From Halomicronema hongdechloris C2206 (GTDB taxonomy: Bacteria; Cyanobacteriota; Cyanobacteriia; Phormidesmidales; Phormidesmidaceae): a stretch of DNA of 32,000 bases. A model generated the notes under the pieces. It was not told the origin of the DNA, made no database searches, and saw nothing but the letters and a program-made list of their open reading frames with translations. The position numbers and the translations under genes are program-made. Positions 4,625 through 32,000 of the stretch are shown here, piece after piece. The stretch's first letter is position 1. Each line of letters begins with the position of its first letter. Where the stretch lies: the NCBI RefSeq assembly GCF_002075285.3, contig NZ_CP021983.2, positions 2,640,001 through 2,672,000 of the forward strand, in the 5' to 3' direction.

Positions 4625-4737
4625 TCTAAAATCACCTCCCCAGTTGGTTCGTAGACCAAGATACTCATCCGCAATTCCTGAACCACTTGAGATGCAAATC
4701 TAGCCAAACTGTCTGAATGAGAAGCTAATGCTGCCTT
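4612..4737 (-). pseudogene. xisH: XisH C-terminal remnant (last about 41 codons only)
   Basis: Reverse frame reads KAALASHSDSLARFASQVVQELRMSILVYEPTGEVILEWIN then a stop. The ...WIN-stop overlaps the xisI start in the usual xisH-xisI coupling. An in-frame TAG at 4740-4738 sits immediately upstream. The expected about 95 N-terminal codons are absent and are replaced by the 3-prime end of the neighbouring nuclease gene. Confidence 0.55.
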
Positions 4738-4742
4738 CTACC

Positions 4743-5462: not shown

Positions 5463-5774
5463 ATCCTCACGTTAACCGCTTTCACCGGTGACCATATGCC
5501 ACCCAAGCCCAGCGTCACCCCGAAAGCCACCGATCCTGAGGTTACCGAACCCATGGCTATAGGAGGAGGTTGGCCTTCGATTCCTGACTTTGCCGGAACT
5601 TATTTTAGATATGACCAAGCTTCACAAAATCTCTATCCATAGCTCCAACAATTGTTGTCCCAATGGCCTATTCTCGAGTAGATGGACGACTGTGATTTCA
5701 CTATGGGTCATCTCTACCTGGTAAAGTCCTTTATTCCAACACCCCAGGGCGATCCAGTGGGGAGGCCATAACAA

Positions 5775-6734
5775 ATGTGTTTGCAATACTGGGCTCAAGT
5801 GAATCCGTTGAGTACTGTCCCGCGTCCTAATCTGTTTATCATTGGTGCCATGAAGGCTGGCACCACGTCCCTCCATGGCTATCTCAACGCCCATCCTGAC
5901 ATTGTCATGTCAGAGCCGAAGGAACCTTGCTATTTTGTTCATCCCCAGGAACTTAATTGGCCTCAGATTGAGCAGCTGCAGCTATGGCAAAACGAGGCCA
6001 AGTATCTGGCACTATTTCCCGACGCCACTGAGGCCAAAGTGATCGGAGAGTCCAGCACGCCCTATGCCAAGTTTCCTGCCATTGGCCAGATTCCAGAGCG
6101 CATTGCTCGGTTTAATCCAGAGGCCCGCTTCATCTATGTCCTTCGCGATCCGATCGAACGCACCATCAGCCATTATCTTCACGAAGTGCGTCGGGGCAAT
6201 GAGCACCGAGATATGGTGACAGCGATTAGCCAAAATCCTCTGTACACCAGCGTTAGCGACTATGACCTACAGCTGCGTCAGTACTTGAATTACTTTGACT
6301 TGCGACAGTTTTTAGTCTTAACCTTCGAAGCCATGACGGCAGATACGCCTGGTACTATCGCCCAGGTCTTCGAGTGGTTAGGCGTTGATAGCTCCTTCCA
6401 GCCGCCTAATCTCACCAGTAAAGCCCACGTTACTCCTAAGACGTTCTATCAAAAAGGCAGGCTGTATCGGCTGAGATATTCCTGGCCCTGGAATCAAATA
6501 GCCGAGCTCTTGCCCAACCGAGTTAGAAAATTGGGACTCAAGACCCTGATTCGAGAGGTCGATCGTGATGCTGAGCTGGTACACAAGCAGGCGGTAACCG
6601 ACTATCTCAGGCCACTCCAGCAATCCCAGGTACGACGACTCAGCCAATTGCTCAACCGAGAGTTTCCGGAGTGGTCCGTGCTCTGGGGCCCCGATGCAGG
6701 TGCCAGACGGGCTCTACGGTCAGTGGGGGAATAA
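5775..6734 (+). CDS. sulfotransferase family protein (carbohydrate-type)
   Basis: PNLFIIGAMKAGTTSLHGYL (5-prime PSB loop), EPKEPCYF, and FIYVLRDPIERTISHY (3-prime PB motif). It is a paralogue of the ORFs at 19704 and 24397. The start is uncertain (ATG 5775 or GTG 5799). Confidence 0.8.
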   Translation: MCLQYWAQVNPLSTVPRPNLFIIGAMKAGTTSLHGYLNAHPDIVMSEPKEPCYFVHPQELNWPQIEQLQLWQNEAKYLALFPDATEAKVIGESSTPYAKFPAIGQIPERIARFNPEARFIYVLRDPIERTISHYLHEVRRGNEHRDMVTAISQNPLYTSVSDYDLQLRQYLNYFDLRQFLVLTFEAMTADTPGTIAQVFEWLGVDSSFQPPNLTSKAHVTPKTFYQKGRLYRLRYSWPWNQIAELLPNRVRKLGLKTLIREVDRDAELVHKQAVTDYLRPLQQSQVRRLSQLLNREFPEWSVLWGPDAGARRALRSVGE

Positions 6735-18616: not shown

Positions 18617-19669
18617 ATGATCACGCGTTGGATTCCCCTGATGGCCGCGTCGGTAGGACTGTGGCTAACCTTTCCGATGGCCCCAACCCGGGCAGTGACC
18701 GAGGCGGTGGGTGCTCTCCCAGCCACGGCCCGAGCCGACTATGTCTTAGGTCCGGGAGACCAGGTGGCCATTTCCATCATTGGCTACGAGGAATTTACCG
18801 GCTCTCGGGTGATCTTGCCCGATGGCACCATCTCCATGCCATTAATCGGCTCGGTGGCGGCGGCAGGCCGCACTACGGAGGCATTGGCAGCGGAACTCAC
18901 GGCCCGGTTGGGGGTGTATTTGGTCAACCCGGTGGTGGATGTCAGCCTGACGGTGTTGCGGCCGGTGGTGGTCACAGTGGCAGGGGAGGTCTATCGCCCC
19001 GGCCCGGTGCAGTTAAGCAGCCTCACCCAGGCCGATACGCGGCTAGATACCAATTCTCGCATTACCTCGTCGACCAATACCCCGACCCTGGCCTCGGCCC
19101 TGACGGCGGCGGGAGGCGTGCAACGCACGGCAGATGTGCGCCAGGTGCGGGTGCAACGCACGTTGCCTACGGGGCAGGTGACTAGCTATACGGTCAATCT
19201 CTGGGAGGCGATCGTATCGGGTACTCAGGCGGACAATCTGGTGTTGCGGGATGGGGATGCCGTCTATGTGCCAGCAGCCGAACCAGGAGATGTGGACCCG
19301 CGGTTGGTGGCCAGTTCTAGTGTGGCCCCGTCAACGGTGCGGGTGCGAGTGATTGGGGAGGTGAACCGGCCGGGCCAGGTGGAGGTGCCACCCAATAGTT
19401 CGGTGTCGGGGGCGGTGGCGGTGGCCGGTGGCCCCACCGATGATGCCCGCCTCAAGGAGGTGGTGCTGGTGCGGTTGAATGACCAGGGCCAGGTGGAGGA
19501 AACGGTGTTGGACCTGCGCAATATGGTGGATGCGGAGCAGGTGCAGGACGGGGACGTGGTGCTGGTGGCGAAGCACGGGTATCTAAATGTGCTGGATGGC
19601 ATTGGTCGGGTGATTCAGGGGGTATTTCCGCCCCTGAGGCTGCTGGATGTGTTGGGGACGTTTGATTAA
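18617..19669 (+). CDS. wza: polysaccharide export outer-membrane protein (Wza-like; Poly_export plus SLBB domains)
   Basis: Signal peptide MITRWIPLMAASVGLWLTFPMAP. YVLGPGDQVAISIIGYEEFTGSRVILPDGTISMPLIGSVAAAGRTTEALAAELTARL is the PES motif. Repeated GDVV/GDAVYVP SLBB-like segments. It starts 3 nt after the wzc stop. Confidence 0.85.
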   Translation: MITRWIPLMAASVGLWLTFPMAPTRAVTEAVGALPATARADYVLGPGDQVAISIIGYEEFTGSRVILPDGTISMPLIGSVAAAGRTTEALAAELTARLGVYLVNPVVDVSLTVLRPVVVTVAGEVYRPGPVQLSSLTQADTRLDTNSRITSSTNTPTLASALTAAGGVQRTADVRQVRVQRTLPTGQVTSYTVNLWEAIVSGTQADNLVLRDGDAVYVPAAEPGDVDPRLVASSSVAPSTVRVRVIGEVNRPGQVEVPPNSSVSGAVAVAGGPTDDARLKEVVLVRLNDQGQVEETVLDLRNMVDAEQVQDGDVVLVAKHGYLNVLDGIGRVIQGVFPPLRLLDVLGTFD

Positions 19670-19703
19670 TGCTGATTCAAGTGCAGTCTATTGAGGGCTA
19701 TCC

Positions 19704-20618
19704 ATGTCTAAATCTCCTGATTTCATCATTATTGGCGCCATGAAATGCGCGACGACAACGCTTCATGAGCAACTTGTGGCTCAGCCCGGCATTTTTATGA
19801 CCGAACCCAAGGAGCCATATTTCTTTAGCAATGATGAGATTTATAGCAAGGGCTGGCAATGGTACCAATCTCTGTATGCAGGGGCACAGCCAGAGGATAT
19901 TTGTGGGGAATCGAGCACCCACTATACGAAATTGCCAACCTATCCGAAAACCGTTAAACGCCTGATCCGACATGTGCCCAATGCTAGGTTCATCTATGTC
20001 ATGAGAGATCCGGTTGATCGACTGGTATCTCAGTATATTCATGAGTGGACTCAGCGACGAATATCTAGTGATATTAACCAGGCAATTTACGAATTTCCAC
20101 CGCTGATTGAATACAGTCGCTATAGCATGCAATTAGCACCTTACTTTAGGGCATTCGGGCCAGAGAGGGTGCTACCGGTATTTCTGGAGAAACTCAAGTC
20201 GAATCCCCAGGCGGAATTAGAAAGGGTATGCCGGTTCATTGGCTACGGGCAACATCCCGTCTGGAACAGCGACTTGGATCAACGGCATGTCTCGTCTGAT
20301 CGAACCCGTAAGAGTGCCTGGCGGGATGCCCTCGTGGAAGCCCCTGGCTTACGTCAGATCCGAAGAGCAGTTGTACCCAAGCCTGTGCGCAATTGGGTCA
20401 GAAGCTGGTGGCAAATGAAGCAGAGGCCTGAGTTAAGTGAAAAAGCCTTAGTTTATATCAAAACAGTGCTGGATAAGGACCTAGACATTTTAGGGTCTTG
20501 GCTAGGGCTAGATTTGAATTGCGATAACTTCAAGCCAACGGTGCTGAACAGTCCAGAGCATTGGATTAATATACAGCACTTGGCTGAGCAGTTCTCGAGC
20601 AAAGAAATGGTCAGCTAG
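19704..20618 (+). CDS. sulfotransferase family protein (carbohydrate-type)
   Basis: SPDFIIIGAMKCATTTLHEQL, EPKEPYFF, FIYVMRDPVDRLVSQY. These match the motifs at 5775 and 24397. GC is noticeably lower than in wza, immediately upstream. Confidence 0.85.
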   Translation: MSKSPDFIIIGAMKCATTTLHEQLVAQPGIFMTEPKEPYFFSNDEIYSKGWQWYQSLYAGAQPEDICGESSTHYTKLPTYPKTVKRLIRHVPNARFIYVMRDPVDRLVSQYIHEWTQRRISSDINQAIYEFPPLIEYSRYSMQLAPYFRAFGPERVLPVFLEKLKSNPQAELERVCRFIGYGQHPVWNSDLDQRHVSSDRTRKSAWRDALVEAPGLRQIRRAVVPKPVRNWVRSWWQMKQRPELSEKALVYIKTVLDKDLDILGSWLGLDLNCDNFKPTVLNSPEHWINIQHLAEQFSSKEMVS

Positions 20619-21863
20619 TTGGCCGATGGCAGCCCTAAATGGCCTACCGAATTTTGGTGGAATGTTGTGATCTATTTACAGGTATTGGATGCCTTGCTCA
20701 TCGGAATATTCCTGGTTCTCAGTATTCCGGTGCTGATGCTAGCAATTGAGGTGATAGCGGCTACATGCGTGCCTCAGTCATTATCTACTAGCCAAGCTCC
20801 TAATCATGCTTTATCGGTAGCCGTCTTGATTCCGGCCCATGATGAGGAAGCCTGTATCGAGACGACTATTCAGACAGTTCAACCCCAACTCGGTCAGAAA
20901 GATCAACTGGTGGTGGTTGCCGATAACTGTACGGATAAGACGGCTCAAATGGCTAGGGATTTGGGAACCGTTGTCATTGAGCGAGTAGATACGCTGAAAC
21001 GCGGCAAAGGCTATGCCTTCGAGTTTGGCATAGGATATTTATTGGATAATCCGCCTGATGTGGTTATTTGCATTGATGCGGATTGTCATATGAGTCCAGG
21101 CAGCATCGCAGGCCTAGTGGCTCAAGCCCATGGGACTCAAAGGCCGGCTCAGGCAATCTATCTGATGGAAACACCGTCGGCCCCCAACTTGAAAAGCGCG
21201 GTTTCGGCCTTTGCATTTAAGGTTAAAAACCTGGTCAGACCCTTGGGATTGTATGGCTTAGGGCAGCCATGTCTGTTGACTGGTACAGGCATGGCGTTTC
21301 CCTGGAAGGCTATCCGTAGCATTGATCTGGCCACCAACTCCATTGTGGAGGATATGAAGATTGGGATCGACCTTGCGATCGCACATCACCCACCCCTGCT
21401 GTGCCCCCAGGCTAAGGTGCTGGGACGCTTACCGAGCCAGCAGGAAGTAGCCAGCCAGCAACGAACCCGCTGGGAACACGGTCATTTACAGGTAATTGCC
21501 AGTTATCTTCCCGTATTGCTGAAAGCAGCCTTCACCCAGGGGCGGTTTGATCTACTCATACTTGCTGTGGAACTAGCCATACCTCCCTTGACGCTGTTGG
21601 CCCTCATGCTAGTAGCCCCATGGGGACTGGCCATGGGGCTAGCCTGGGTGCACCACACGATCTGGGCACTGGCCGTCGGCTCAGCTAACATCCTCGTTTT
21701 CACGGTTGCATTAACCGTTGCCTGGTTGAGATATGGACAGGAGGATCTAAACCTCTGGGACATGGTGAAACTACCGGTTTATTTGTTGTGGAAGCTCCCC
21801 ATTTATTTGCGGTTTCTGACCAGTCCAGAGCGCGAATGGAAACGCACCAGCAGAGGGAATTAA
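20619..21863 (+). CDS. membrane-embedded processive GT2 (cellulose-synthase-like, D,D,D,QxxRW class)
   Basis: N-terminal TM segment. VAVLIPAHDEE, VVVADNCTDKT, ICIDADC (DxD), SIVEDMKIG (ED), QQRTRWEHG (QxxRW), then several C-terminal TM helices. The start is uncertain: a TTG directly abuts the upstream stop. Confidence 0.8.
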   Translation: MADGSPKWPTEFWWNVVIYLQVLDALLIGIFLVLSIPVLMLAIEVIAATCVPQSLSTSQAPNHALSVAVLIPAHDEEACIETTIQTVQPQLGQKDQLVVVADNCTDKTAQMARDLGTVVIERVDTLKRGKGYAFEFGIGYLLDNPPDVVICIDADCHMSPGSIAGLVAQAHGTQRPAQAIYLMETPSAPNLKSAVSAFAFKVKNLVRPLGLYGLGQPCLLTGTGMAFPWKAIRSIDLATNSIVEDMKIGIDLAIAHHPPLLCPQAKVLGRLPSQQEVASQQRTRWEHGHLQVIASYLPVLLKAAFTQGRFDLLILAVELAIPPLTLLALMLVAPWGLAMGLAWVHHTIWALAVGSANILVFTVALTVAWLRYGQEDLNLWDMVKLPVYLLWKLPIYLRFLTSPEREWKRTSRGN

Positions 21864-23134
21864 TAGTTTGGCTTACTCAGCGTCAGTGATCGAGGGAGGC
21901 TATGCTTTGATAACTGTTTCTCTGGTGAGCGGCGCTGATATAAATTCGTGGAGATAACGGTAGCGCAATACAATACCCAGAAGATATTTAGCAGAAACGT
22001 CAGCAGACTCTCAGTCATGTTATAGAGCAACAATAGACTTAATAATCCCAGAGGCCAGAAATCCTCTGGCTTACTGCCCTTGTAGGCAGTTTTTAAGGCA
22101 TGCCAGTAGGTCTTAACCAGAGAAACCAGAAATAGAGATAACCCGACGAAACCCACGAATAGGGTCATGTCTAGAAAGCCATTATGGGAGTGAGGTGGCA
22201 AGTAGCCCCGCCCTAGTCTGAGACCAATTTCGACTCGTTCAGTAGCGTCTGGTGCCCAAAACCCCATCTGCCCATAGCCTAAAATAGGTTGCTCCATAAT
22301 CTTTTGGATGACGCCCCCCCAAATTAAGGTCCTACCCGATAAGGTTGGATCCCTGCCGAGACTAGTAATTAACGGTGCCCAGTTACTCGCAATGACAGTA
22401 ACTATAGAGCCCAAAGTAAGCACTGTCAGATCTAAGAGCAGTAGCGTTGGTTTGCCTTTCCAAATAAACTTTTTATAGAGGGATAAAGAGACGAGCGCAA
22501 CTATAAAAATAATTAACCCCGACTTAGAGGTCGATAGAATAATCATGGCAATAGACAGCAGTAGCCCGGCTCTAGCCAATAAACTCTCCTGGGGATTCTT
22601 ATTCTTGCTGAGCAAACAGAAAAAGGCCACTAGCGTCAGGGTCATATAGGCTGAGAAGGTATTCTTGTGGCCATAGATTCCCTTCCAAGATCCGGCATGA
22701 ACTCCCCCTAGCTTGATCCCGACTCCAGGCATGGCGATCACCGCAAATAGACTTAAAAGGGCACCGATTCCTAATACCACAACGATTAATCGCAACTGCT
22801 GCTTAATCGTGAATCGCGACCCGAAATAGATGCCAAAGGCTGACATGGGGATAAACTCACCCCTGAGATTGTCGAATGTTTGCGCTGGATAAGCAGCCCA
22901 AGCTAACGACGCAATCACCAAAAATATTAATAGAGCGAGTACCCTACTGCGTTTCAGGGCACAAAGAGTAAGATGCAGGCGTTTAGCCAGTAGCCCTAAG
23001 GTGATCATTAAGATCGAATACCTCAGCAGCGTCATGCCTATAGACGGCAAAAAAACTGACAGCCCGTTGGTGAAGAAGAGGAGACTGAATATAGAGAAGG
23101 CTCGTTCAAAGGAAGGGGAGATGCGCATAGACAC
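21860..23134 (-). CDS. wzy: O-antigen ligase/polymerase family membrane protein (Wzy-like)
   Basis: 424 aa and highly hydrophobic, with about 10-12 predicted TM segments. A periplasmic-loop region ...GRGYLPPHSHNGFLDMTLFVGFVGL is typical of the Wzy_C/O-antigen ligase domain. The stop overlaps the stop of the convergent GT2 (TTAA at 21860-21863). Confidence 0.75.
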   Translation of the reverse strand: MSMRISPSFERAFSIFSLLFFTNGLSVFLPSIGMTLLRYSILMITLGLLAKRLHLTLCALKRSRVLALLIFLVIASLAWAAYPAQTFDNLRGEFIPMSAFGIYFGSRFTIKQQLRLIVVVLGIGALLSLFAVIAMPGVGIKLGGVHAGSWKGIYGHKNTFSAYMTLTLVAFFCLLSKNKNPQESLLARAGLLLSIAMIILSTSKSGLIIFIVALVSLSLYKKFIWKGKPTLLLLDLTVLTLGSIVTVIASNWAPLITSLGRDPTLSGRTLIWGGVIQKIMEQPILGYGQMGFWAPDATERVEIGLRLGRGYLPPHSHNGFLDMTLFVGFVGLSLFLVSLVKTYWHALKTAYKGSKPEDFWPLGLLSLLLLYNMTESLLTFLLNIFWVLYCATVISTNLYQRRSPEKQLSKHSLPRSLTLSKPNY

Positions 23135-23138
23135 TGGT

Positions 23139-24320
23139 TTAGTGGTCTTGGTTTACTGTAAGGCTGTGAGCCCGTAGCCATGCCTGGTTCACCTCTGAGG
23201 GGGTGAGCCACCGCTCAATAAACTCGGCCCACTTGACGGGAATTTGCAGCCGTTTCCAGACATCATAAGAGTTCAAGGAAAGCTTTTGATAGAGCTCATG
23301 GTAAGACAGCAATTTATGAATGCAGTTGGCTAAAGCCTTGCTGTCTTTTTGAGGAAAGATCATCGCGGTCTCCCCATGCTCTAAATACCCCCTAAACATG
23401 GGATGGTCCGAGGCGACAATGGGAGTTCTGGCACAGAGGGCCTCATAGAGGGTCAGCGGAAATCCCTCTGGATAACAATGACGGCTGGGCACCGCCACTA
23501 CATCTGACTCACGCATCAGCGGCACGATCGAGCTGTGGGGGATGCGCCCTAGGAAGGTGACCTGATCCTGTAGTTGCTGTTGGGCGACCCGTTGGGTAAA
23601 CGCCTCTAGGTTACCGTCCCCGGCGATTTTCAGGTGTACAGGGACATGTTGCTGCTTTAGCAGCGCCACTGCCTCGATCAAATCCCCAACTCCCTTAGCC
23701 TGGGAAACCGTACCCACATAGAGCAGTTGACCATCTCTACCCTGAGGCCCCTGCTTAGCTGGGAAGTCTTTTGGGGAAAGAGTATGAGGCCAATCCCAGG
23801 GGACAATTTTCTCGGGCTTCACCCCGATGGCTTGCAGGGAGCGGCAGGCATTACGGCCATGGTTGCCCACCCAGGCAATTTGGGAGTGATTTAATGCCCG
23901 AGCTAGGCGACGATGGCGCAGCCAGGGTTGGACCCCACGCCCCAAAAACGAGTCTGCTAGCAGGGTAATGGTCTCTATCCGGTGGCGAATGGCCCACTCT
24001 AGCACCTGGGGCATCGGAGATCTGACCACCAAGTGGGTGGGTCTAAAGGCTTCGATGATCTGCAGGAGCTTAGGCATATTGTCCTCGGGAATAAACCCGG
24101 TGCCGATGACCCGAAACCCAATATCTAGGATTTCGTCATAGGCTTCTGCAGATCGGCAGCAGAGGACGGCGGCTTCTTCGAGAGACTCGGCCATCTGGGC
24201 GATGGATTGAATTGCATAGCGATGGCCATGATAGATTTCACCATCCCCGGCAACCATGCGACAGTAGGCCTCTCGATAATCGCCTCCGTACAGCACAATC
24301 ATTAAGCGCCTAGGTTCCAT
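23139..24320 (-). CDS. glycosyltransferase family 4 (GT-B, group 1)
   Basis: LLYVGTVSQAKGVGDLIEAV...LKIAGDGN...VAVPSRHCYPEGFPLTLYEALCARTPIVASD carries the EX7E-type motif. ATG at 24320. It ends 4 nt upstream of the wzy start, so probably in one operon with it. Confidence 0.85.
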   Translation of the reverse strand: MEPRRLMIVLYGGDYREAYCRMVAGDGEIYHGHRYAIQSIAQMAESLEEAAVLCCRSAEAYDEILDIGFRVIGTGFIPEDNMPKLLQIIEAFRPTHLVVRSPMPQVLEWAIRHRIETITLLADSFLGRGVQPWLRHRRLARALNHSQIAWVGNHGRNACRSLQAIGVKPEKIVPWDWPHTLSPKDFPAKQGPQGRDGQLLYVGTVSQAKGVGDLIEAVALLKQQHVPVHLKIAGDGNLEAFTQRVAQQQLQDQVTFLGRIPHSSIVPLMRESDVVAVPSRHCYPEGFPLTLYEALCARTPIVASDHPMFRGYLEHGETAMIFPQKDSKALANCIHKLLSYHELYQKLSLNSYDVWKRLQIPVKWAEFIERWLTPSEVNQAWLRAHSLTVNQDH

Positions 24321-24396
24321 AATCAATGACTAGTAATCACGACAAACACGTGGGTGAGATGACTCAGCTGCTTAGAATTCCCTGAGGAACTAGCGC

Positions 24397-25266
24397 TTAA
24401 AGGTGCTGGATTGGGGAATAGGCAGGCTGAGAGAACGATGACCAGTAATCTAGAGGCTTACCGCAATAGTTCAAGAGAGCCTGGGTATCGTCAGCCAATT
24501 GCTCTAAGACCCATTGCTGGGTTTCTGGTTGCCATTGGGGACGTTCACTGACTGGCTTAAAGAACAGGCGTTTCTTCAATGGATCACGCAAATCCCTGGG
24601 CAAGACCTGCACACTGGCGCGATATAACGGATTAGCCCGCAGCTTGGATAAAACCGGAGACGGCATGGTCTTGGTGGCAGAGGGGTTCATCTGCAGTGTG
24701 GTGTCAATGGATATCTCCGGATCGACTCCGAGAAATTCAAAACAGGTGCGCAATACCCTATGCGGATTTGTCTTAAAGTCTTCAAAGAAGATGATTAGAA
24801 TTTGCTCATTGGAAAAGTAAGGGCGATAGGCATTGATTTGCTGCCAGTAGTTAGAGGCATCGATTAGCCAATCGCGATTCAGTTTAATAGCCGTATTAAA
24901 GTCATGGTGCACGACCTCGCCGCCATGGGAGCGAATTTCTAGCCAGTAAGATTCGATGCGGGTGAATGGATCTCGGACACAGTAGATTAGCTTTAAGTCA
25001 GTGGAATAGGCCCGAATGCGTTCAACTGCCTGGGGATAAATCTCCTGCATCGTGTAAATATTGCTGTTTTCTCCCTTGATCTGACCCAGCTGGGCCGCTG
25101 TAAACAGAGAACGGTACCAATCTATGCCCTTCGCATAAAGATCATCTCGGGCAAAGAAACTCACTTCATGGGGAGGAGTGAAAATATCAGGATGTTGATT
25201 TAAGAGAGCCGTAATTGTGGTGGTGGCGCACTTGGAGGCACCGATAAATAGAAAGTCAGGTGTCAT
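24397..25266 (-). CDS. sulfotransferase family protein (carbohydrate-type)
   Basis: MTPDFLFIGASKCATTTITALL, PPHEVSFF, LIYCVRDPFTRIESYW. ATG at 25266 preferred by analogy with MSKSPDFIIIG at 19704. Alternative starts are 25284 (ATG) and 25314 (TTG). Confidence 0.85.
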   Translation of the reverse strand: MTPDFLFIGASKCATTTITALLNQHPDIFTPPHEVSFFARDDLYAKGIDWYRSLFTAAQLGQIKGENSNIYTMQEIYPQAVERIRAYSTDLKLIYCVRDPFTRIESYWLEIRSHGGEVVHHDFNTAIKLNRDWLIDASNYWQQINAYRPYFSNEQILIIFFEDFKTNPHRVLRTCFEFLGVDPEISIDTTLQMNPSATKTMPSPVLSKLRANPLYRASVQVLPRDLRDPLKKRLFFKPVSERPQWQPETQQWVLEQLADDTQALLNYCGKPLDYWSSFSQPAYSPIQHL

Positions 25267-26055
25267 AGTAGTCAGAACGCCCATAGACTGGTTGTAGCTA
25301 CGAATAGCTCCCAAGGAAATTGGAGATGAGGCAGATGATGGAGTAATGGGATAAATAGTCTATTGGTATTATTCATCTTGATATAAATGCATCAGGATGG
25401 ATGGTCAGCTAACTTGCCAAAATAATTTTGACGATCTTTATTCCATTGCGGGCGGCACTTTATAGCAGCTTTATATCTAGACAGACAGTGTTAAAGACAC
25501 GGATATTTGAGCCTAAGTTCCGAGAGGGACCAGCGATAATCCTGTAATATACGGGCTGCTGATGGCTGCGCTGCAGATGTGCTAGAGAAAACGTCTAGTC
25601 AGTATTCTTATGAATATGGGAGAGGAGTGTCGGAACCTTAACCTGAATGACCGCGTCGGAGCGATATGAAATCCCACTAGGCAGGGGTGTGACCATCTTG
25701 AAGTTGTATACCAGCACACTTTTGACTGAATTTCGTTGAGGGCTTAGAGCCTCATAGATAAGCAGCAAGAGCGATTTTACCCTGACAGTTGTAAATTCTC
25801 CTGATCGATGCTGAAAACACTGAATGAACGGAAAGAACTATCCTTAAATTCTTAGGATGACCGTCGATGGATCTCATCGCCAGCATCAAACTCACTACAT
25901 TTATCCCAGCATTGAGATTGCCATTGCGGCACTTAGCCAGTAGGACTACGACTGTTTCTGATCATGCCCTTGCGAAACCATAAGAGACTGATGACGTCTT
26001 GGGGGTAAAGCAGCGGTTGCAGTCGGGTCCGCGTCTACCTTGCTCATCATTCGGG

Positions 26056-27270
26056 ATGGACACCATGACAATCGCCTACTTAGTCAATCAATATCCCAAA
26101 GTCAGCCATAGCTTTATCCGCCGGGAAATCGAGGCGGTAGCCGCCAGTGGTTTAACCGTGCACCGCTATGCCATTCGCTCTTTAGCAACGGAATTGGTAG
26201 ATGAGGCCGACCTGCGAGAGTTAGTCCAGACCCAATTTGTCTTAGATGTCGGCCCCTTGGGGCTATTGCTAACCTGGCTGTGGATAGGGCTGACTCGGCC
26301 CTGGCGCTTTGGTGTCGCCTTGAGGTTGGCCTTGGCCATAGGCCACTGTTCCGAGCGGGGCCGGTTGATTCATTTGATTTACCTGGCCGAAGCCTGTGTG
26401 TTGCTGCAGTGGTGTCGCCGGGATGGGGTGGCCCATATCCATGCCCACTTCGGCACTAACTCCACCACGGTGGCGATGCTGGTGCAGGAGTTGGGGGGGC
26501 CGTCCTATAGCTTTACGGTTCATGGCCCCGAAGAGTTTGATAAGGTGCAGGCCATTGCCCTGCCCCAGAAGATTGAACGGGCTGCCTTTGTGGTGGCCGT
26601 CAGTGACTTTGGCCGCAGCCAGCTCTGTCGCTGGTGTAGCCATGACCTGTGGGACAAGATTCAGGTGGTGCGCTGCGGGGTGGATGAGCTGTTCTTGCAA
26701 CAGGCCCCGTTGCCGCTCCCCCTGGCTCCTAGCTTTGTCTGTGTGGGGCGCCTCTGTGAGCAGAAGGGGCATTTGCTGCTGATAGAGGCAGCAGCGAAGC
26801 TAGCTAGCCAGGGCAGACATTTTCGCTTGGTGTTGGTGGGGGATGGCCCCCTGAGAGCCCCCATCGAAGCCATGATTGAGCGCTATGGCCTGGCGGAGCA
26901 GATCACGATCACCGGCTGGGCCAGTGGTGATGAGGTGCTGCGGCATCTGTTAGAGGCTCAGGTGATGGTGCTGCCCAGTTTTGCCGAGGGCTTGCCGGTG
27001 TCGCTGATGGAGGCCCTGGCTTTGGGGCGACCAGTGATTAGCACCTATGTAGCCGGGATTCCGGAGTTGGTGGAACCGGATATCTGTGGCTGGTTGGCGC
27101 CAGCGGGAGCCCTGGAACCCTTGGTGGCGGCGATGAAGTCGGCCTTGGCGACACCCGTAGCAGAACTAGAGGAAATGGGGCGACGCGGTGCTGAACGCGT
27201 GGCGCAGCGCCATAGTAGTGCCACTGAAGGGGCGAAGTTAGCGGCTCTGTTTCACAGGGAGCTGAAGTAA
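26056..27270 (+). CDS. glycosyltransferase family 4 (WcaL/AmsK-like)
   Basis: MDTMTIAYLVNQYPKVSHSFIRREI..., FVCVGRLCEQKGHLLLIEA...LVLVGDGPLR...VLPSFAEGLPVSLMEALALGRPVISTYVAGIPELV. High GC, like the native part of the window. Confidence 0.85.
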   Translation: MDTMTIAYLVNQYPKVSHSFIRREIEAVAASGLTVHRYAIRSLATELVDEADLRELVQTQFVLDVGPLGLLLTWLWIGLTRPWRFGVALRLALAIGHCSERGRLIHLIYLAEACVLLQWCRRDGVAHIHAHFGTNSTTVAMLVQELGGPSYSFTVHGPEEFDKVQAIALPQKIERAAFVVAVSDFGRSQLCRWCSHDLWDKIQVVRCGVDELFLQQAPLPLPLAPSFVCVGRLCEQKGHLLLIEAAAKLASQGRHFRLVLVGDGPLRAPIEAMIERYGLAEQITITGWASGDEVLRHLLEAQVMVLPSFAEGLPVSLMEALALGRPVISTYVAGIPELVEPDICGWLAPAGALEPLVAAMKSALATPVAELEEMGRRGAERVAQRHSSATEGAKLAALFHRELK

Positions 27271-27339
27271 TCCAAAATTCATGAGTCTTAGAGAAAGCCC
27301 TAATGAATATATCAGTAGATCACTACTAAGAAACATTCA

Positions 27340-28218
27340 ATGAAAAAGTTACGCATAAAACCCTCTAAAAGACAAACTGCAAGAGCCTTTTACTCTTCTC
27401 AGAGCCAGCTCCGACATCCAACGCAAATGTTGCAGTTACTGCGCCGGGATATTCTGGCCTCCCGAGAGTTAGCTTGGCAACTGCTAATTCGAGATATTAA
27501 AGCACAGTACCGACAGTCTTTGCTAGGCTTTGCTTGGGCTTTTATTCCACCTGTAATCACTGCAGTTGGCTTCATGTTTGCCAAGGGTAATGGCATTGTT
27601 AATATTGGAGAAACTGATATACCTTACCCTGCTTATGTGATGTTTAGCACAAGTCTATGGCAAACATTTTCAGAAGCGATTAGCTTACCTGTTCAACAGG
27701 TAACCAATGCCAAGATGATGCTGGCAAAGATCAATTTTCCTCGGGAAGCATTAGTACTTTCTGCCGTAGGGCAAGTATTCTTTAACTTTTTAATTAAACT
27801 GATTTTTATTATCGGACTATTTATCTGGTTCCGTATGCCTGTGACATGGAGTATTGTATTGGCTCCTGTGGCTTTACTTCACCTAATTATGCTAGGTACG
27901 ACTATCGGCACTGTCCTAGCCCCGATTGGTGCTCTCTATAAAGATGTCACAAAAGGGTTGACCTTCATTCTTAGTTTCTGGATGCTATTAACTCCAGTGG
28001 TATATCCTCCTCCTCAAGGAGGGAAACTTTCGCTGCTGATAAATCTCAATCCAGTTAGCCCATTACTGGTGACGACTCGGGAACTTTCTACAGTAGGAAT
28101 ATTGTCTAATCCTCAAGGTTTCTGGATGGCTAGTGGCGTCGCTTTCTTAGGTCTTCTCCTGGCATGGATGTTTTATCGCTTAGCCATGCCCTACGTTATT
28201 GAAAGGATGAGTTCTTAA
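27340..28218 (+). CDS. wzm: ABC-2 type polysaccharide export permease (Wzm/KpsM/TagG-like)
   Basis: ELAWQLLIRDIKAQYRQSLLGFAWAFIPPV is the ABC-2 signature, followed by six hydrophobic segments. Low GC. The stop overlaps the next start (TAATG). Confidence 0.85.
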   Translation: MKKLRIKPSKRQTARAFYSSQSQLRHPTQMLQLLRRDILASRELAWQLLIRDIKAQYRQSLLGFAWAFIPPVITAVGFMFAKGNGIVNIGETDIPYPAYVMFSTSLWQTFSEAISLPVQQVTNAKMMLAKINFPREALVLSAVGQVFFNFLIKLIFIIGLFIWFRMPVTWSIVLAPVALLHLIMLGTTIGTVLAPIGALYKDVTKGLTFILSFWMLLTPVVYPPPQGGKLSLLINLNPVSPLLVTTRELSTVGILSNPQGFWMASGVAFLGLLLAWMFYRLAMPYVIERMSS

Positions 28219-29540
28219 TGATGTCTGATTTATCCCTCTACTCAGCCAACAACCTCAAGGAGACGGATTTAAATGGACACGTTACAGCCAGTGATGATGT
28301 AGTGCTTTCTGTAAATAATGTTTCTAAGAAATTCTGCAGAGATCTCAAGCTCTCTCTGATGTATGGAATGCAAGATATTGTAGGGGAGATGGTTGGACTA
28401 CGCAAACAGAGTGAGCAGTTACGCAAGAAAGAATTTTGGGCATTAAAGGATATTAGTTTCCAACTGCGTCGAGGAGAGGCATTAGGGCTGGTTGGTAAAA
28501 ACGGCAGTGGCAAGTCTACCCTACTGAGGATTATTGCTGGACTGATTAAGCCTGATACAGGCAATGTAGAGATTAAAGGTCGTGTGGCTCCGCTTATTGC
28601 TCTAGGAGCAGGATTTAATGCAGTGTTGACTGGCAGAGAAAACATCTATGCCAATATGTCCATTCTGGGTCTGTCGAAAGAGGAAATTGATGAACGATTC
28701 GATGAGGTCGTAGAATTCGCAGAAATTGGAGAGGCAATTGATGCGCCTGTTCAAACCTACAGTTCTGGAATGCAGGCAAGATTAGGATTTTCGTGTGCGA
28801 TTCATACTAAGCCGGACATTCTTTTGATAGATGAAGTTCTCGCAGTTGGAGACATCAGATTCAGGTCGAAGTGTCATAAAAAGCTTCGAGAACTACGCCA
28901 TAATGGAACTTCTTTTATTCTTGTTAGTCATATTACTCAGTTGATATTAAACACTTGTGAACTCTCAATTTTTCTAAAGTATGGCAAGCTAATTAAACAG
29001 GGAAATTCTCAAGATGTTATGCAAATTTATGAACAAGATCTCTTCGAAATAAATAGTCAAGAAACCACAAAGAAAATTTTCAAGTTTGATTCTATGAAAA
29101 AACAGTTAATAGAAAACTCTGGAATCAAGATTAATGAAATTGCATTTAAAGATGAAAATGGGAATGAGATTTCTGAAATATTAACCGGAAACTTCTTAAA
29201 GATAGAAACACTAATTACTTCGGATAAAACATTTGAAGATGTAAACCTATTTATCAAAATCCAAGAGATAGGCGGGGAAGGAGAGCCAACATTGTTGCTA
29301 AACAGCTTTAATGATGGGAATTCTTTTCAGATTGAACCAGGATCTCACTGTATAACCATCGAGTTGCCTTATTTAGGGTTAAAGCCTGGAATATACAATT
29401 TTACTCTCTTGATAAAAGAGTCAGGACTATATATTGTTGACCTTGTTGAATCAATACAGATTATAGTTAAGGCAAATATTATCATGACGGATTGTCTTTT
29501 CTATCAGCCTAGGAAGTGGAAGAGTACACGAGTCGATTAG
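28218..29540 (+). CDS. wzt: polysaccharide ABC exporter ATPase with C-terminal carbohydrate-binding extension (Wzt/TagH-like)
   Basis: Walker A GKNGSGKST, signature YSSGMQARL, Walker B ILLIDEVLAVGD, H-loop SH. A further about 170 aa C-terminal domain (INEIAFKDENGNEISEIL...GIYNFTLLIKE...) resembles the Wzt_C beta-sandwich. Confidence 0.85.
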   Translation: MMSDLSLYSANNLKETDLNGHVTASDDVVLSVNNVSKKFCRDLKLSLMYGMQDIVGEMVGLRKQSEQLRKKEFWALKDISFQLRRGEALGLVGKNGSGKSTLLRIIAGLIKPDTGNVEIKGRVAPLIALGAGFNAVLTGRENIYANMSILGLSKEEIDERFDEVVEFAEIGEAIDAPVQTYSSGMQARLGFSCAIHTKPDILLIDEVLAVGDIRFRSKCHKKLRELRHNGTSFILVSHITQLILNTCELSIFLKYGKLIKQGNSQDVMQIYEQDLFEINSQETTKKIFKFDSMKKQLIENSGIKINEIAFKDENGNEISEILTGNFLKIETLITSDKTFEDVNLFIKIQEIGGEGEPTLLLNSFNDGNSFQIEPGSHCITIELPYLGLKPGIYNFTLLIKESGLYIVDLVESIQIIVKANIIMTDCLFYQPRKWKSTRVD

Positions 29541-29581
29541 AATAAATCGAAACAAATTTCTTTCTACCTGTAGTTTTTTTG

Positions 29582-30400
29582 ATGTCTAAAATGAGAAAGC
29601 ATATTAATCCTAAAATGAAAGACAATTCAAAGCAGAAAGATGAAAAATCAGGATTCTTCAGAGAAGACGACATATTTCTAGTTTCATACCCTAAGAGTGG
29701 TAACACCTGGGTTAGATTTTTAATTGCCAACCTAGTTCAGCCTAATAAGGAAGTAACATTCCTGAATATAGATGAATGCGTGCCAGACATTCATAAAAAT
29801 TCAATTGAAGAAATCAGCGTTAATGTTATTGAGAGGCCAAGAATTATCAAAAGCCATAATCTATATAATCCGACCTATAAAAGGGTTATTTACATAGTTA
29901 GAGATCCAAGAAGTGTTTCAGTATCTTTATATCACCACTTAATAAAATTTTTCAAAATTCCTGATCAATATCCATTCGAAGAATTTGTAGAAAATTTTAT
30001 TAAAGGAAATTATATGAGCTATTTTGGCTCTTGGGATAGTCATGTTCTTGGATGGATGAGCGGAACAAAGAATAATAATACTGATTTCATATGCTTAAAG
30101 TATGAAGATCTCAAAGATGAAACAGAAAAAGAGTTAACTAAAGTAGCTGACTTTTTAGGACTCAAGATTAACCAAGAACTATGTCAGAGAACTATTACTG
30201 CTAGTTCCTTTAATAAGATGAGACAATTAGAGTCTATGGATTGGGAGAAATCTAAGGCATTAAGCAATGGTAATCCTCATAAGCGATTTGTAAGAAGTGG
30301 GCAAGTAGATGAATGGAAATCGTATTTTAATCAAGAATCAGAGAGAAAATTACTGTCAAAATTTAGACCTGCAATGGAAGCACTTGGCTATACAGATTAG
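29582..30400 (+). CDS. sulfotransferase, PF00685-like (cytosolic-SULT-type motifs)
   Basis: FLVSYPKSGNTWVRFL (5-prime PSB), IIKSH, IYIVRDPRSVSVSLYHH (3-prime PB), YEDLKDETEKELTKVADFLGL, RSGQVDEWKSYF. Very low GC. Confidence 0.85.
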   Translation: MSKMRKHINPKMKDNSKQKDEKSGFFREDDIFLVSYPKSGNTWVRFLIANLVQPNKEVTFLNIDECVPDIHKNSIEEISVNVIERPRIIKSHNLYNPTYKRVIYIVRDPRSVSVSLYHHLIKFFKIPDQYPFEEFVENFIKGNYMSYFGSWDSHVLGWMSGTKNNNTDFICLKYEDLKDETEKELTKVADFLGLKINQELCQRTITASSFNKMRQLESMDWEKSKALSNGNPHKRFVRSGQVDEWKSYFNQESERKLLSKFRPAMEALGYTD

Positions 30401-30684
30401 TCTCTAATAAACTTTTGAAAAGTTCATTAGATAAATAAAAAATAAGCTAAACCATGAGACTAAAAAAATAGATGAGATCTAGCTATAGGGACAGAAGAAC
30501 AGTTGGTTTGTTGTAAAAATGTATTACCTTTAAATACCTATTCAGATGCAAAAGTCAAATCTAATTAGTCACCTCAATGGATGAAATGTGCACAATAAAT
30601 AAATGATATCTGAGGCAAAAAATTTGGAATTATATTTTTTACTACTTTATAATTCCATATAAAAAACAAGAGAAAATTAAAATC

Positions 30685-31512
30685 ATGATCAATATAACGT
30701 CTTTTTTTAGAAGCAGAAAAGAGTTTAATCTATTATTCTGCATTAACTCTGGAAGATCTGGTTCAAACTACCTTTCAAGTCTCTTAGGAACAACAAAAGA
30801 AGTATTTAGTCAGCATGAGGCTGAGCCTCCTATGATTGGTGGATATCTTGAAATGGTAAATAATTATCCCTTTTCTGAATCTTATCAATCTAGAAGAGTA
30901 AAAGTCGATGCTATAAAGCAAGCTATTAAAAGCATGCCAAAAAGTAAGAAGATTTACTGTGAAACAAATCACATGTTTATTAAAACATTCTTTGATGTCG
31001 TAATGGATGAATTTTCTGAGAAAGTGGAAATTATTATTCTAAGAAGAAACTTGGTGAGAGTTCTGAAGAGTTTCATAGAACTTGGTTATTTCTCGGAGCG
31101 CAATAAAGTTTGGTCTGAATGGATGTCTAGCCCCAACTCTATAACGGCTGTACTTCCCTGTATTGGTTTAGATAGTGAACTAGATCAATATGATCTATGC
31201 ATTGCATATCTTTTAGATATAGAAGCAAGAGCAGAAAAGTTTCAGAAGGATTATCCTTCAGCAAGGACATATGAGATCAAACTTGAGGATTTAAACGATT
31301 TTTCAAATATAAATAGAATGTTTAAGGCCATGAAAATAACACCTACACAAGAAACTTATAAAATATATAATAAAAAAATTAATAATAGAGAAATTAGAAA
31401 GAAAGAGATAGGAATTAGCTCTAGTTTAGACTATTGCGAGAAGAGATTGAAAGAATACATTGAAAAGGCTAATTACTTGGGGATAGAAATACCGCAAAAG
31501 GCGGCAACATAA
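30685..31512 (+). CDS. hypothetical protein, possible divergent sulfotransferase (P-loop-like GRSGS motif)
   Basis: 275 aa. LFCINSGRSGSNYLSSLLG resembles the PAPS-binding loop of Stf0/Sulfotransfer_3-type enzymes. IIILRRNLVRVLKSF resembles a 3-prime PB-like RR motif. There are no other recognisable motifs. The assignment is an inference. Confidence 0.4.
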   Translation: MINITSFFRSRKEFNLLFCINSGRSGSNYLSSLLGTTKEVFSQHEAEPPMIGGYLEMVNNYPFSESYQSRRVKVDAIKQAIKSMPKSKKIYCETNHMFIKTFFDVVMDEFSEKVEIIILRRNLVRVLKSFIELGYFSERNKVWSEWMSSPNSITAVLPCIGLDSELDQYDLCIAYLLDIEARAEKFQKDYPSARTYEIKLEDLNDFSNINRMFKAMKITPTQETYKIYNKKINNREIRKKEIGISSSLDYCEKRLKEYIEKANYLGIEIPQKAAT

Positions 31513-31580
31513 ATATCTCAGTCAAGCAAGGCTCTTAAACATTTTGCTTATTATCAGGCATTTAAATTGAAGGTAAAACC

Positions 31581-32000
31581 ATGGACCATAATCTCAATCC
31601 TAAAATTAGTGTAGTAATGATAGATGGTTCTTTTCGAGAAAACTTCTCTGCAATAAAGTACTTTGGAGATCAATCTCTTCCTTCTGAGAGTTATGAATTA
31701 ATTTGGGTAGAGTATTACAACAACGTAGATAAAAATTTGAGGAGAGAGATTGAAAAATTTCCAAATTTTAGAATTCTCACTTTAGGCAGAGAAGGAGAAT
31801 ACCATTCTTCCTATTGTTTTAATGCTGGGATTTCAGAAAGTATCGGTGATGTAATCGTAATTCCAGATGCAGACTTAGTTGTAGAAAACAATTTTCTAGA
31901 GGAAATTCTTTCCGAACATAGAAAAAATAACGAGCTGGCAATGTATATCTATAGGCTAAACGAGCCAAAAGAATTACATCAAGAGCCCATTACTCTAGAG
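31581..32000 (+). CDS. glycosyltransferase family 2-like, N-terminal 140 codons (continues beyond window)
   Basis: Absent from the ORF track because there is no stop within the window. ATG at 31581. MDHNLNPKISVVMIDGSFRENFSAIKYFGDQSLPSESYELIWVEYYNNVD...GDVIVIPDADLVVENNF shows a GT-A beginning with a DAD (DxD) motif. Confidence 0.6.
   Translation, partial: MDHNLNPKISVVMIDGSFRENFSAIKYFGDQSLPSESYELIWVEYYNNVDKNLRREIEKFPNFRILTLGREGEYHSSYCFNAGISESIGDVIVIPDADLVVENNFLEEILSEHRKNNELAMYIYRLNEPKELHQEPITLE

Follow-up and report, generated by a model that had tools for sequence, protein, structure and literature searches.

A probable exchangeable AT-rich cassette for an ABC-dependent, sulfated surface polysaccharide beside a cyanobacterial EPS locus

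From 27271 to at least 32000, the window analysed here (the whole 32,000-nucleotide stretch of Halomicronema hongdechloris C2206 DNA) is likely to hold the beginning of an AT-rich, exchangeable cassette for an ABC-dependent, sulfated surface polysaccharide, of low-GC cyanobacterial origin and old. This extent is a lower bound, the right boundary lying beyond the window. The cassette would comprise wzm, wzt (whose product has a variable C-terminal domain), two sulfotransferase genes and at least one family-2 glycosyltransferase (GT2) gene. At its junction with the glycosyltransferase gene GT4_b at least one other arrangement exists, with a wzx flippase gene. Its kind is already known: low-GC, horizontally exchanged polysaccharide cassettes have long been described from O-antigen and capsule loci.

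Composition of the window

In 1-kb windows GC is mostly 0.57–0.64 over 1–19.5 kb, 0.45–0.55 over 19.5–26 kb and 0.59 in the GT4 gene, then comes down to 0.42–0.47 over 27–28.5 kb and to 0.30–0.33 from 29 kb to the window end; host GC is about 60%. A two-segment likelihood fit over 25999–28900 puts the left change point at 27263 (LRT 84), where GC steps from 0.60 to 0.42 and GC3 from 0.69 to 0.39. Its support interval, 27210–27276 (all positions no more than 2 lnL units off), spans the GT4_b stop codon (27268–27270), at which an earlier, sequence-only reading of this DNA had placed the onset of a sharp low-GC block; the sliding-window GC and GC3 check proposed there, run on the window, finds the steps at the same codon.

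Gene by gene, GC and GC3 are 0.594 and 0.691 for GT4_b (25999–27270), 0.427 and 0.386 for wzm (27340–28218), 0.377 and 0.351 for wzt (28218–29540), 0.322 and 0.277 for the sulfotransferase gene ST_c (29579–30400), and 0.321 and 0.283 for ORF5 (30685–31512), while the intergenic spacers of the island have GC 0.24–0.32. Codons in the island are A/T-ending, as had been claimed, with GC3 of 0.28–0.39 against 0.69–0.70 in GT4_b and the host (host GC3, 0.70).

The division into native DNA and island drawn by the sequence-only reading stands for the drop at the GT4 stop, but further steps lie at 19661, 26118 and 28900. Island GC is not uniform: a second composition step (change point 28900, interval 28816–28944, LRT 56) falls inside wzt at about codons 200–243, with GC going from 0.425 to 0.315 and pooled GC3 of 0.392 before it and 0.286 after. 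Nor is the native side uniform: a block of about 0.50 GC begins at the wza stop (change point 19661) and extends to about 26118, so that GT4_b is a gene of native composition flanked by two atypical blocks.

The motif HIP1, GCGATCGC, has ten sites in the window, where 0.35 are expected from dinucleotide-preserving shuffles of the window, and all ten positions listed earlier were reproduced exactly. No site occurs in 27.3–32 kb (2.2 expected at native density; P(0) = 0.115), which taken alone is weak evidence for foreignness. Codon usage (RSCU) of the island correlates with that of the native genes of the window at r = −0.11 and −0.53 and with that of polysaccharide loci of low-GC Nostocales (Anabaena, Calothrix) at r = +0.64 to +0.70. 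The steps in GC and GC3 and the lack of positive correlation with native genes bear out the description of the block as compositionally foreign.

The left junction and its two arrangements

GT4_b (25999–27270, + strand) encodes a conserved EpsE/WcaL-like family-4 glycosyltransferase (Pfam Glycos_transf_1, 1.2e-31; NCBIfam EpsE-like, 3e-60, under that model's cut-off), and the cassette is anchored on the left at its 3′ end. In the database the gene is called from about 26065. Between its stop and wzm lies an AT-rich spacer of 69 nt (27271–27339, + strand, GC 0.32). Orthologues of GT4_b in other cyanobacteria are 60–66% identical, and none of the 80 genome loci of other cyanobacteria that contain one has a close wzm-wzt after it.

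The one close relative available, about 88% identical in DNA, comes from two JGI metagenomes and one Logan assembly; its GT4_b orthologue is 92% identical. Two of its contigs, L170 (JGI 3300023283) and L169 (JGI 3300023218), carry ST_b-GT4_b-spacer-wzm-wzt at 88–94% identity to the window, with 73% conservation of the 69-nt spacer; the L169 copy of wzm matches that of the window at 91% identity in DNA and 95.5% in protein. L169 stops at position 28627 of the window, and the comparison of the cassette with the relative covers 27271–28627. Two other contigs, L167 (JGI 3300023218) and L168 (Logan SRR23862444), are 99.6% identical to L170 over GT4_b and 1.6 kb of upstream sequence, and have a wzx flippase gene after GT4_b instead (Polysacc_synt_3, E 1.5e-95) with native-like GC (0.52). 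L167/L168 and L169 are identical through ...CAGTTAGAG, then continue as CAATCATGA... and TAATTCAAATTC..., respectively (alignment A1). The left junction (27263–27276) is thereby marked both by the composition change point and by the end of homology between the relative's two arrangements.

Since the wzx and wzm-wzt continuations split no more than 3 nt from the GT4 stop codon, the cassette appears swappable, with a precise recombination point; a native-like wzx alternative at the same junction is what a swapped cassette predicts. The two arrangements, which are on short metagenome contigs, may represent two strains or a pair of copies in a single genome. The sequence-only reading had said that orthologous islands at this site in all relatives, with congruent phylogeny, would count against it; the one available relative has such an island, but it has the wzx arrangement too. 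As to strain specificity, the island is shared over 27271–28627 alongside that alternative.

The contrast in composition between the two sides is very strong, as an assembly or scaffolding artefact fusing two organisms would make it. Such an artefact is extremely unlikely, however: L169 and L170, from independent metagenome assemblies, show this junction too, and the 5,577,845-bp NCBI contig that bears the native Wza is also where every island protein is on record.

An abrupt left boundary might also be left by a mobile element bearing polysaccharide genes (integrative element, prophage remnant or IS-flanked composite), and its right end, beyond the window, could hold an integrase or repeat. 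We consider this very unlikely. The window contains no tRNA gene, no direct or inverted repeats above chance-level 14–30-mers mark the left junction, and the ORFs of 25.2–32 kb, which include that junction, contain no integrase or transposase domain; the earlier statement that the left junction has none of these is thus confirmed. The genes, moreover, form a coherent glycan operon. The cassette would rather have been joined to the resident Wzy/Wzc/Wza-type EPS locus by recombination, with the left crossover in the last codons of GT4_b. That it adjoins this locus at the GT4_b end agrees with the graft onto a resident EPS locus proposed from the sequence only.

Inheritance without transfer, with AT-richness of local cause (selection for AT, or a relaxation of codon selection in surface-glycan genes that are weakly expressed and evolve fast), is unlikely in our view. 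In other cyanobacteria, wzm-wzt-led polysaccharide clusters are also lower in GC than their flanks (about 0.50 to 0.36–0.50 in Leptothermofonsia L083, with smaller dips in Anabaena L081 and Calothrix L082), and the Wzt family is pan-cyanobacterial. Vertical descent nevertheless sits badly with a GC3 drop of 30–40 points within about 70 nt, at the place where a second arrangement splits off base-precisely, with codon usage anticorrelated with that of the host, and with the cassette following none of the 80 other GT4_b orthologues.

Age and origin of the cassette

Between window and relative, dS is 0.385 for wzm, 0.26 for the 5′ part of wzt and 0.43 for the adjacent GT4_b, and 0.64–0.77 for Wzc, Wza, ST_a, Wzy and ST_b. 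Values of 0.26–0.39 in the island against 0.43 in GT4_b indicate that the cassette was in place before the lineages split, or spread soon after. About 0.3–0.4 synonymous substitutions per site have accrued in the two lineages, and the cassette is therefore an old variable one, not a recent strain-specific insertion. The word "recent" in the sequence-only reading has to be dropped on these values and on the presence of the same GT4-spacer-wzm-wzt junction in a relative of about 88% identity.

A recent acquisition, specific to the strain, from a distant donor of low GC and too young for amelioration to host composition, would fit island GC3 of 0.28–0.39 in a host of 0.70 and the lack of HIP1. 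It would also fit the 90% clusters of ST_c and ORF5, which hold only the source genome's own proteins, with no member at least 90% identical from any other source; the distal part may thus postdate the proximal one. We nonetheless find it improbable. For 27271–28627 it is contradicted by the junction and wzm-wzt in the relative, dS is 0.26–0.39 in the island and 0.43 in the flanking GT4_b, and 5.8 billion proteins include no near-identical donor, the best match being 61% identical.

For an old cassette the source would be the gene pool of low-GC cyanobacteria. A BLASTP-type taxonomic check of Wzt gave 120 closest homologues that are all cyanobacterial where named, and its best matches among those 5.8 billion proteins, 55–61% identical, come from diverse other cyanobacteria with no clear nearest clade. 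The nearest homologues of ORF5 are at most 52% identical, the sole named one being from a Desulfobacteraceae MAG.

Gene content and proposed function

The gene order wzm-wzt-sulfotransferase-sulfotransferase-GT2 read from the sequence only is upheld by Pfam domains and, for ORF5, by an AlphaFold2 model and Foldseek. By their domains and arrangement, wzm and wzt are a predicted ABC-transporter-dependent polysaccharide exporter pair of permease and cognate ATPase. The product of wzm (27340–28218, + strand) is an ABC-2 type permease (PF01061, 2.1e-13, 50.8 bits against a cut-off of 26.9; NCBIfam Wzm/RfbD, 3.1e-11, under cut-off). Directly downstream, with its start codon overlapping the wzm stop, wzt (28218–29540, + strand) encodes an ABC ATPase (PF00005, 9.7e-24) whose best NCBIfam matches, TagH (2.5e-61) and Wzt/RfbE (3.4e-50), are all under the equivalog cut-offs. 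Its variable C-terminal part resembles Wzt_C (PF14524, E 7.4e-05, 23.2 bits, under the Pfam cut-off of 30.4), a domain that most of the 120 closest homologues carry. Against the homologues the N-terminal 270 aa are 73–78% identical and the C-terminal 170 aa only 37–43%. Homologous wzm-wzt pairs in other cyanobacteria stand at the head of long operons of glycosyltransferases and modifying enzymes.

ST_c (29579–30400, + strand; database starts at 29582 or 29615) encodes a putative PAPS-dependent sulfotransferase of the cytosolic SULT type (PF00685, 4e-45; estrogen sulfotransferase at 1e-27, phmmer against PDB). ORF5 (30685–31512, + strand) encodes a divergent protein of a family for which there is no Pfam model: the only Pfam sulfotransferase match is a sub-threshold one to Sulfotransfer_3 (PF13469, E 0.023, 15.4 bits against a cut-off of 27), and NCBIfam gives no match. 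At E ≤ 1e-3 the family comprises 855 clusters, the best at 52% identity. The AlphaFold2 model of the ORF5 protein (pLDDT 94.7) has the PAPS-sulfotransferase fold; in PDB its first 38 Foldseek matches all show that fold (PAPS sulfotransferases and the related retinol dehydratase), with E from 1.7e-05 and TM of about 0.44–0.55. Residues G23, R24, G26, R121 and S129, invariant in 48 homologues, may be the 5′-PSB and 3′-PB motifs. The last gene, GT2_c (31581–32000, + strand), is a family-2 glycosyltransferase gene that continues past the window, which contains its 5′ 140 codons (PF00535, 4e-06, 27.3 bits against a cut-off of 23.3; GC3 0.22–0.28).

From what is known of these families, glycosyltransferases would assemble a carrier lipid-linked glycan on the cytoplasmic side of the membrane, the two cytoplasmic PAPS-dependent sulfotransferases would sulfate it on that side, and Wzm/Wzt would export the sulfated product. 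The C-terminal domain of Wzt is probably the substrate-recognition module.

The intermediate-GC block upstream (19661–26118, from change points and Pfam) is an older block within the same locus as the cassette, and holds ST_a, GT2_a, Wzy, GT4_a, ST_b and a 684-nt spacer. The relative shares it at 85–88% DNA identity and the same GC, but with the GT2 replaced. Three further sulfotransferases lie around the adjoining Wzy/Wzc/Wza block, one of them upstream at 5775–6734.

Comparison with known systems

Cyanobacterial EPS clusters of both Wzx/Wzy and ABC type carry sulfotransferase genes (PMC8205485). As in these, including the xss (synechan) cluster of Synechocystis PCC 6803, PAPS-type sulfotransferase genes here stand among glycosyltransferase and export genes. 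The window does not show the make-up of an xss/synechan-type cluster, in which sulfotransferases go with Wzx, Wzy, PCP and the XssQ/R/S regulators: Wzy, Wzc and Wza are present, but tblastn finds no wzx in the window and no regulator genes were identified among its scanned ORFs. The xss cluster is Wzx/Wzy-dependent, plasmid-borne and regulated by XssQ/R/S, whereas the cassette is predicted to be ABC-dependent, is chromosomal, and adjoins a Wzy/Wzc/Wza block with three further sulfotransferases.

The exporter pair may be set beside those of Escherichia coli O9a, Klebsiella O12 and Raoultella terrigena, described by Whitfield and co-workers, in which Wzt has a C-terminal carbohydrate-binding domain; Wzt_C on the ATPase is the mark of the terminus-recognising Wzm/Wzt subclass. 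Shared with them are an ABC-2 permease gene followed by an overlapping ATPase gene, an ATPase with an extra C-terminal domain of about 170 aa (here a weak Wzt_C match), and a conserved nucleotide-binding part next to a highly variable C-terminal part. Unlike in those exporters, the Wzt_C match is under the Pfam threshold (23.2 against 30.4 bits), and instead of a methyltransferase, kinase or Kdo-transferase terminator gene, of which none is seen in the window, sulfotransferase genes come next.

The closest parallel in organization is to the O-antigen and capsule clusters of Enterobacteriaceae, Burkholderia and Pseudomonas. O-antigen operons have classically been traced to low-GC species, and in a hybrid cluster GC drops sharply (PMC5462993). 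Those clusters and the cassette have in common that GC falls abruptly within a polysaccharide locus, that the junction lies where a conserved gene ends, that mobility genes are lacking and that alternative cassettes of wzx and wzm/wzt type occur at one site. The cassette differs in its cyanobacterial host of about 60% GC, in an unusually large drop (GC3 0.70 to 0.28), in its two sulfotransferases, and in its left anchor, a glycosyltransferase gene inside an EPS (Wzc/Wza) locus rather than a housekeeping gene of the galF/gnd type. Its product could be an O-antigen, a capsule or a released EPS.

Composition of the locus

In 1-kb windows, GC is 0.57-0.64 over most of 1-19.5 kb and 0.59 over GT4_b (25999-27270), a family-4 glycosyltransferase gene of EpsE/WcaL type; after GT4_b it is 0.42-0.47, and from ~29 kb it is 0.30-0.33. 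Third-position GC (GC3) is 0.69 in GT4_b, 0.39 in wzm, 0.35 in wzt and 0.28 in the two genes that follow, ST_c and ORF5. With two segments fitted by likelihood, the break lies at 27263, with positions within 2 lnL units at 27210-27276, an interval that spans the GT4_b stop codon (27268-27270). The abrupt low-GC island (27271-32000) that the sequence-only reading had described as starting at this stop codon is therefore real and correctly placed.

The break is one of several in a patchwork locus, whose composition changes at four points: 19661 at the wza stop (GC 0.59 to 0.50), 26118 at the GT4_b start (0.46 to 0.60), 27263 at the GT4_b stop (0.60 to 0.42), and 28900, located within 28816-28944 inside wzt (0.425 to 0.315). 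The step inside wzt is also visible at synonymous sites, where pooled GC3 is 0.39 over wzm and the first 200 codons of wzt, versus 0.29 for everything downstream.

The block at 19661-26118, whose left edge is precisely the wza stop, has intermediate GC (~0.50), GC3 of 0.52-0.60 and one HIP1 site. Within the housekeeping region, GC dips to 0.50-0.54 at 4289-6734, where a 111-aa ORF on the minus strand (4289-4624, GC 0.435) and a sulfotransferase gene (5775-6734, GC 0.524; PF13469 at 7.5e-20) are found.

The HIP1 octamer (GCGATCGC) occurs at ten sites in the window, each of which the sequence-only reading had positioned exactly; shuffles expect 0.35. HIP1 absence from the last 4.7 kb was rejected as independent evidence. 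It is weak alone because only 2.2 sites are expected there at native density (0 observed, P(0) = 0.115).

A chimeric window, hinted at by a missing Wzt self-match in the homology search, was rejected. In the 90% clustering, a 40-aa poly-glycine fragment labelled Rotaria magnacalcarata stands for the window's Wzt, and this clustering artefact hid the self-match; one NCBI contig of 5,577,845 bp carries Wzm, Wzt, ST_c and ORF5 as well as the native Wza.

Gene content

Housekeeping genes (MtnA-like isomerase, lycopene cyclase, Obg, DNA polymerase III delta, precorrin methylase) come first in the window, then WecG, Wzc and Wza, then the intermediate-GC block, which holds two further sulfotransferases (ST_a and ST_b), one GT2 (GT2_a), a Wzy-like polymerase and one GT4 (GT4_a). 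After GT4_b come wzm (27340-28218), an ABC-2 permease (PF01061, 2.1e-13); wzt (28218-29540), an ABC ATPase whose C-terminus scores 23.2 bits against Wzt_C, below the 30.4-bit threshold; ST_c (29579-30400), a SULT-type sulfotransferase (PF00685, 4e-45; PDB estrogen sulfotransferase, 1e-27); ORF5 (30685-31512); and GT2_c (31581-32000), the start of a GT2 that runs off the window. The gene labels of the sequence-only reading all hold, by domain matches and, for ORF5, by fold. Sulfotransferase-type genes number five in these 32 kb. Despite the presence of Wzy, Wzc and Wza, no wzx flippase is found anywhere in 1-32000, and near the left junction no repeats, tRNAs, promoter-like or terminator-like sites rise above chance.

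Against other cyanobacterial Wzt proteins, identity is 73-78% over the N-terminal 270 residues of Wzt and 37-43% over the C-terminal 170, and the composition step at ~28900 coincides with this change in conservation from the nucleotide-binding part to the variable C-terminal domain. The step (28816-28944) could mark a module swap inside wzt; weaker constraint there could account for it just as well.

ORF5 has no significant Pfam or NCBIfam match. Its family comprises at least 855 clusters at 50% identity (E<=1e-3), with G23, R24, G26, R121 and S129 invariant. The best PDB matches of its AlphaFold2 model (pLDDT 94.7) are all PAPS sulfotransferases (E from 1.7e-05, TM 0.44-0.55). These matches, the confident model and the invariant residues support the prediction of ORF5 as a sulfotransferase at the fold level, and it stands for a sizeable sulfotransferase-fold family that lacks a Pfam model. 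Its nearest homologues are at most 52% identical and are mostly metagenome proteins, plus one from a Desulfobacteraceae MAG. Among homologues P0371-P0520, some members carry the domain as part of fusion proteins of 450-1600 aa. The closest homologue on a long contig (L171) lies in a cluster with a DegT aminotransferase, methyltransferases, radical SAM and ATP-grasp proteins, a different sugar-modification cluster that has no synteny with the island.

Two arrangements at the junction in a close relative

A relative much closer to the host than other GT4_b carriers was found in metagenomes only. Its contig L084 (JGI 3300023218) carries Wzc-Wza-GT2-ST-Wzy-GT4-ST at 84.5-87.6% DNA identity to the window, and the corresponding genes share the window's intermediate GC. 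L170 (JGI 3300023283) overlaps L084 at 99.8% and, past GT4_b, extends 59 nt into the AT-rich spacer; L169 (JGI 3300023218) begins 105 nt before the GT4_b stop and continues through the spacer and wzm into wzt, aligning at 90% identity to window positions 27166-28627, where the contig ends. The relative therefore carries the same GT4_b-spacer-wzm-wzt junction as the window.

A second arrangement is found on L167 (JGI 3300023218) and L168 (Logan SRR23862444). Both share with L170, at 99.6% identity, a 1.6-kb stretch made up of the upstream spacer and the entire GT4_b; beyond it they encode a Polysacc_synt_3 flippase, wzx (E 1.5e-95), with GC 0.52 and GC3 0.58 (0.72 at its 5' end). The lineage thus has at least one alternative at this site, headed by wzx. 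Alignment A1 shows no difference between the two arrangements up to ...CAGTTAGAG; at the next base they part (TAA versus CAATCATGA), so the homology breakpoint falls together with the window's composition breakpoint. The window's wzm-wzt occupies the position held by wzx in this alternative.

The intermediate block (19661-26118) is also present in the relative, at 85-88% identity and with unchanged GC, and so appears to belong to an older layer of the mosaic. The GT2 adjoining wza has been replaced and moved (window 20619-21863 versus L084:3800-4990): the relative's gene has 60% GC and a HIP1 site and lies before ST_a, the window's has 52% GC and lies after it, and the two proteins are 46% identical versus 86-93% for neighbouring genes. 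The 684-nt spacer upstream of GT4_b (25315-25998, GC 0.44) aligns with L170:1439-2377 over only 209 nt, at 70%; identity of the genes on either side is 86-89%. In two assemblies of the relative, contigs break within this spacer. Two 72-aa ORFs upstream of the relative's GT4_b were considered as the cause and rejected; they are unrelated to each other and therefore do not explain the breaks.

Age of the cassette

Nei-Gojobori estimates of dS between window and relative are 0.65 for Wzc, 0.70 for Wza, 0.77 for ST_a, 0.64 for Wzy, 0.42 for GT4_a, 0.70 for ST_b and 0.43 for GT4_b. Those for wzm (0.385 ± 0.05) and the 5' part of wzt (0.26 ± 0.06) put the divergence of the island copies at about that of GT4_b, the conserved gene next to them. 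Island genes have dN/dS of 0.05-0.06 and are therefore under purifying selection in both lineages. The cassette predates the lineage split, or passed between the lineages not long after it. Since wzm GC3 is nearly equal in the two (0.39 in the window, 0.40 in the relative), low GC has persisted over this divergence.

The sequence-only reading had proposed a recent horizontal acquisition from a low-GC donor, grafted onto a resident EPS locus. Foreign origin and grafting are supported. Recency is not supported for 27271-28627, the part covered up to the end of L169, where the relative has the junction and dS is 0.26-0.385; nor is this part of the island strain-specific, the same junction and wzm-wzt being present in the relative.

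Relatives of the island genes

The best 120 Wzt matches are 55-61% identical and all cyanobacterial where named (Anabaena, Calothrix, Fischerella, Nostoc, Moorena, Pleurocapsales, Leptolyngbya). In three of these genomes the homologous wzm and wzt stand at the head of a long operon for glycosyltransferases and for modifying enzymes of pyruvyl, methyl or sialyl type, not sulfotransferases. These clusters have lower GC than their flanks, most clearly in Leptothermofonsia (~0.50 to 0.36-0.50). Island codon usage correlates with that of the Anabaena and Calothrix loci (r 0.64-0.70) versus r of -0.11 and -0.53 with native genes of the window. No close donor is found in the databases searched. An exact 40-mer from 31955-31994, used to look for sequence beyond the right end of the window, has no match among metagenome contigs.

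GT4_b has orthologues at 60-66% in many filamentous cyanobacteria. The locus-level GT4_b search covered genome and metagenome contigs and returned relatives at 53-66% among the matches listed, the 92% relative being found by protein search; in none of 80 genome loci among the matches listed does a close wzm-wzt follow the GT4_b orthologue. Three Coleofasciculus loci (L024, L029, L030) have, ~6-9 kb downstream of the orthologue, an ABC ATPase 26-28% identical to Wzt, followed in L029 and L030 by two sulfotransferase genes. This pairing is of similar function in another lineage, without close homology to the island.

Discussion

These results are read most simply as an exchangeable cassette for a sulfated, ABC-dependent surface glycan. 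Recombination at the 3' end of GT4_b, a conserved glycosyltransferase gene, would have joined this cassette to the resident EPS locus. From what is known of these families, assembly and PAPS-dependent sulfation of the glycan would take place in the cytoplasm, followed by export through Wzm/Wzt, with the C-terminal domain of Wzt as the probable recognition module. The cassette is thereby a candidate ABC-dependent route to sulfated polysaccharide.

A bolder proposal, which we consider improbable, is that sulfate caps the end of the glycan chain, one of the sulfotransferases after wzt acting as chain terminator and the divergent Wzt C-terminal domain reading the sulfated terminus. The ~28900 step would then mark a module swap, in which the recognition domain was exchanged with its matching modifying enzymes while wzm and the nucleotide-binding part were retained. 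We know of no description of sulfate as a chain terminator in ABC-dependent polysaccharides.

Under the preferred reading of an exchangeable cassette, an AT-rich segment can hold GC3 of ~0.3-0.4 in a host with GC3 of 0.70 across ~0.3-0.4 synonymous substitutions per site, which bears on reading 'recent' from composition alone.

Sulfotransferase genes have already been catalogued in cyanobacterial EPS clusters of both Wzx/Wzy and ABC type (PMC8205485), and hybrid O-antigen clusters show sharp GC drops (PMC5462993). O-antigen and capsule loci have long been known for the architecture seen in this cassette, including atypically low GC. The surface-polysaccharide loci of filamentous high-GC cyanobacteria appear to share the cassette-swapping logic of those pathogen loci, down to a junction exact to the base and the coexistence of alternatives of wzx and wzm/wzt type. 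These findings leave current concepts unchanged: the cassette is not a new kind of system but a clean and unusually steep instance, in an under-studied group, of a phenomenon already known.
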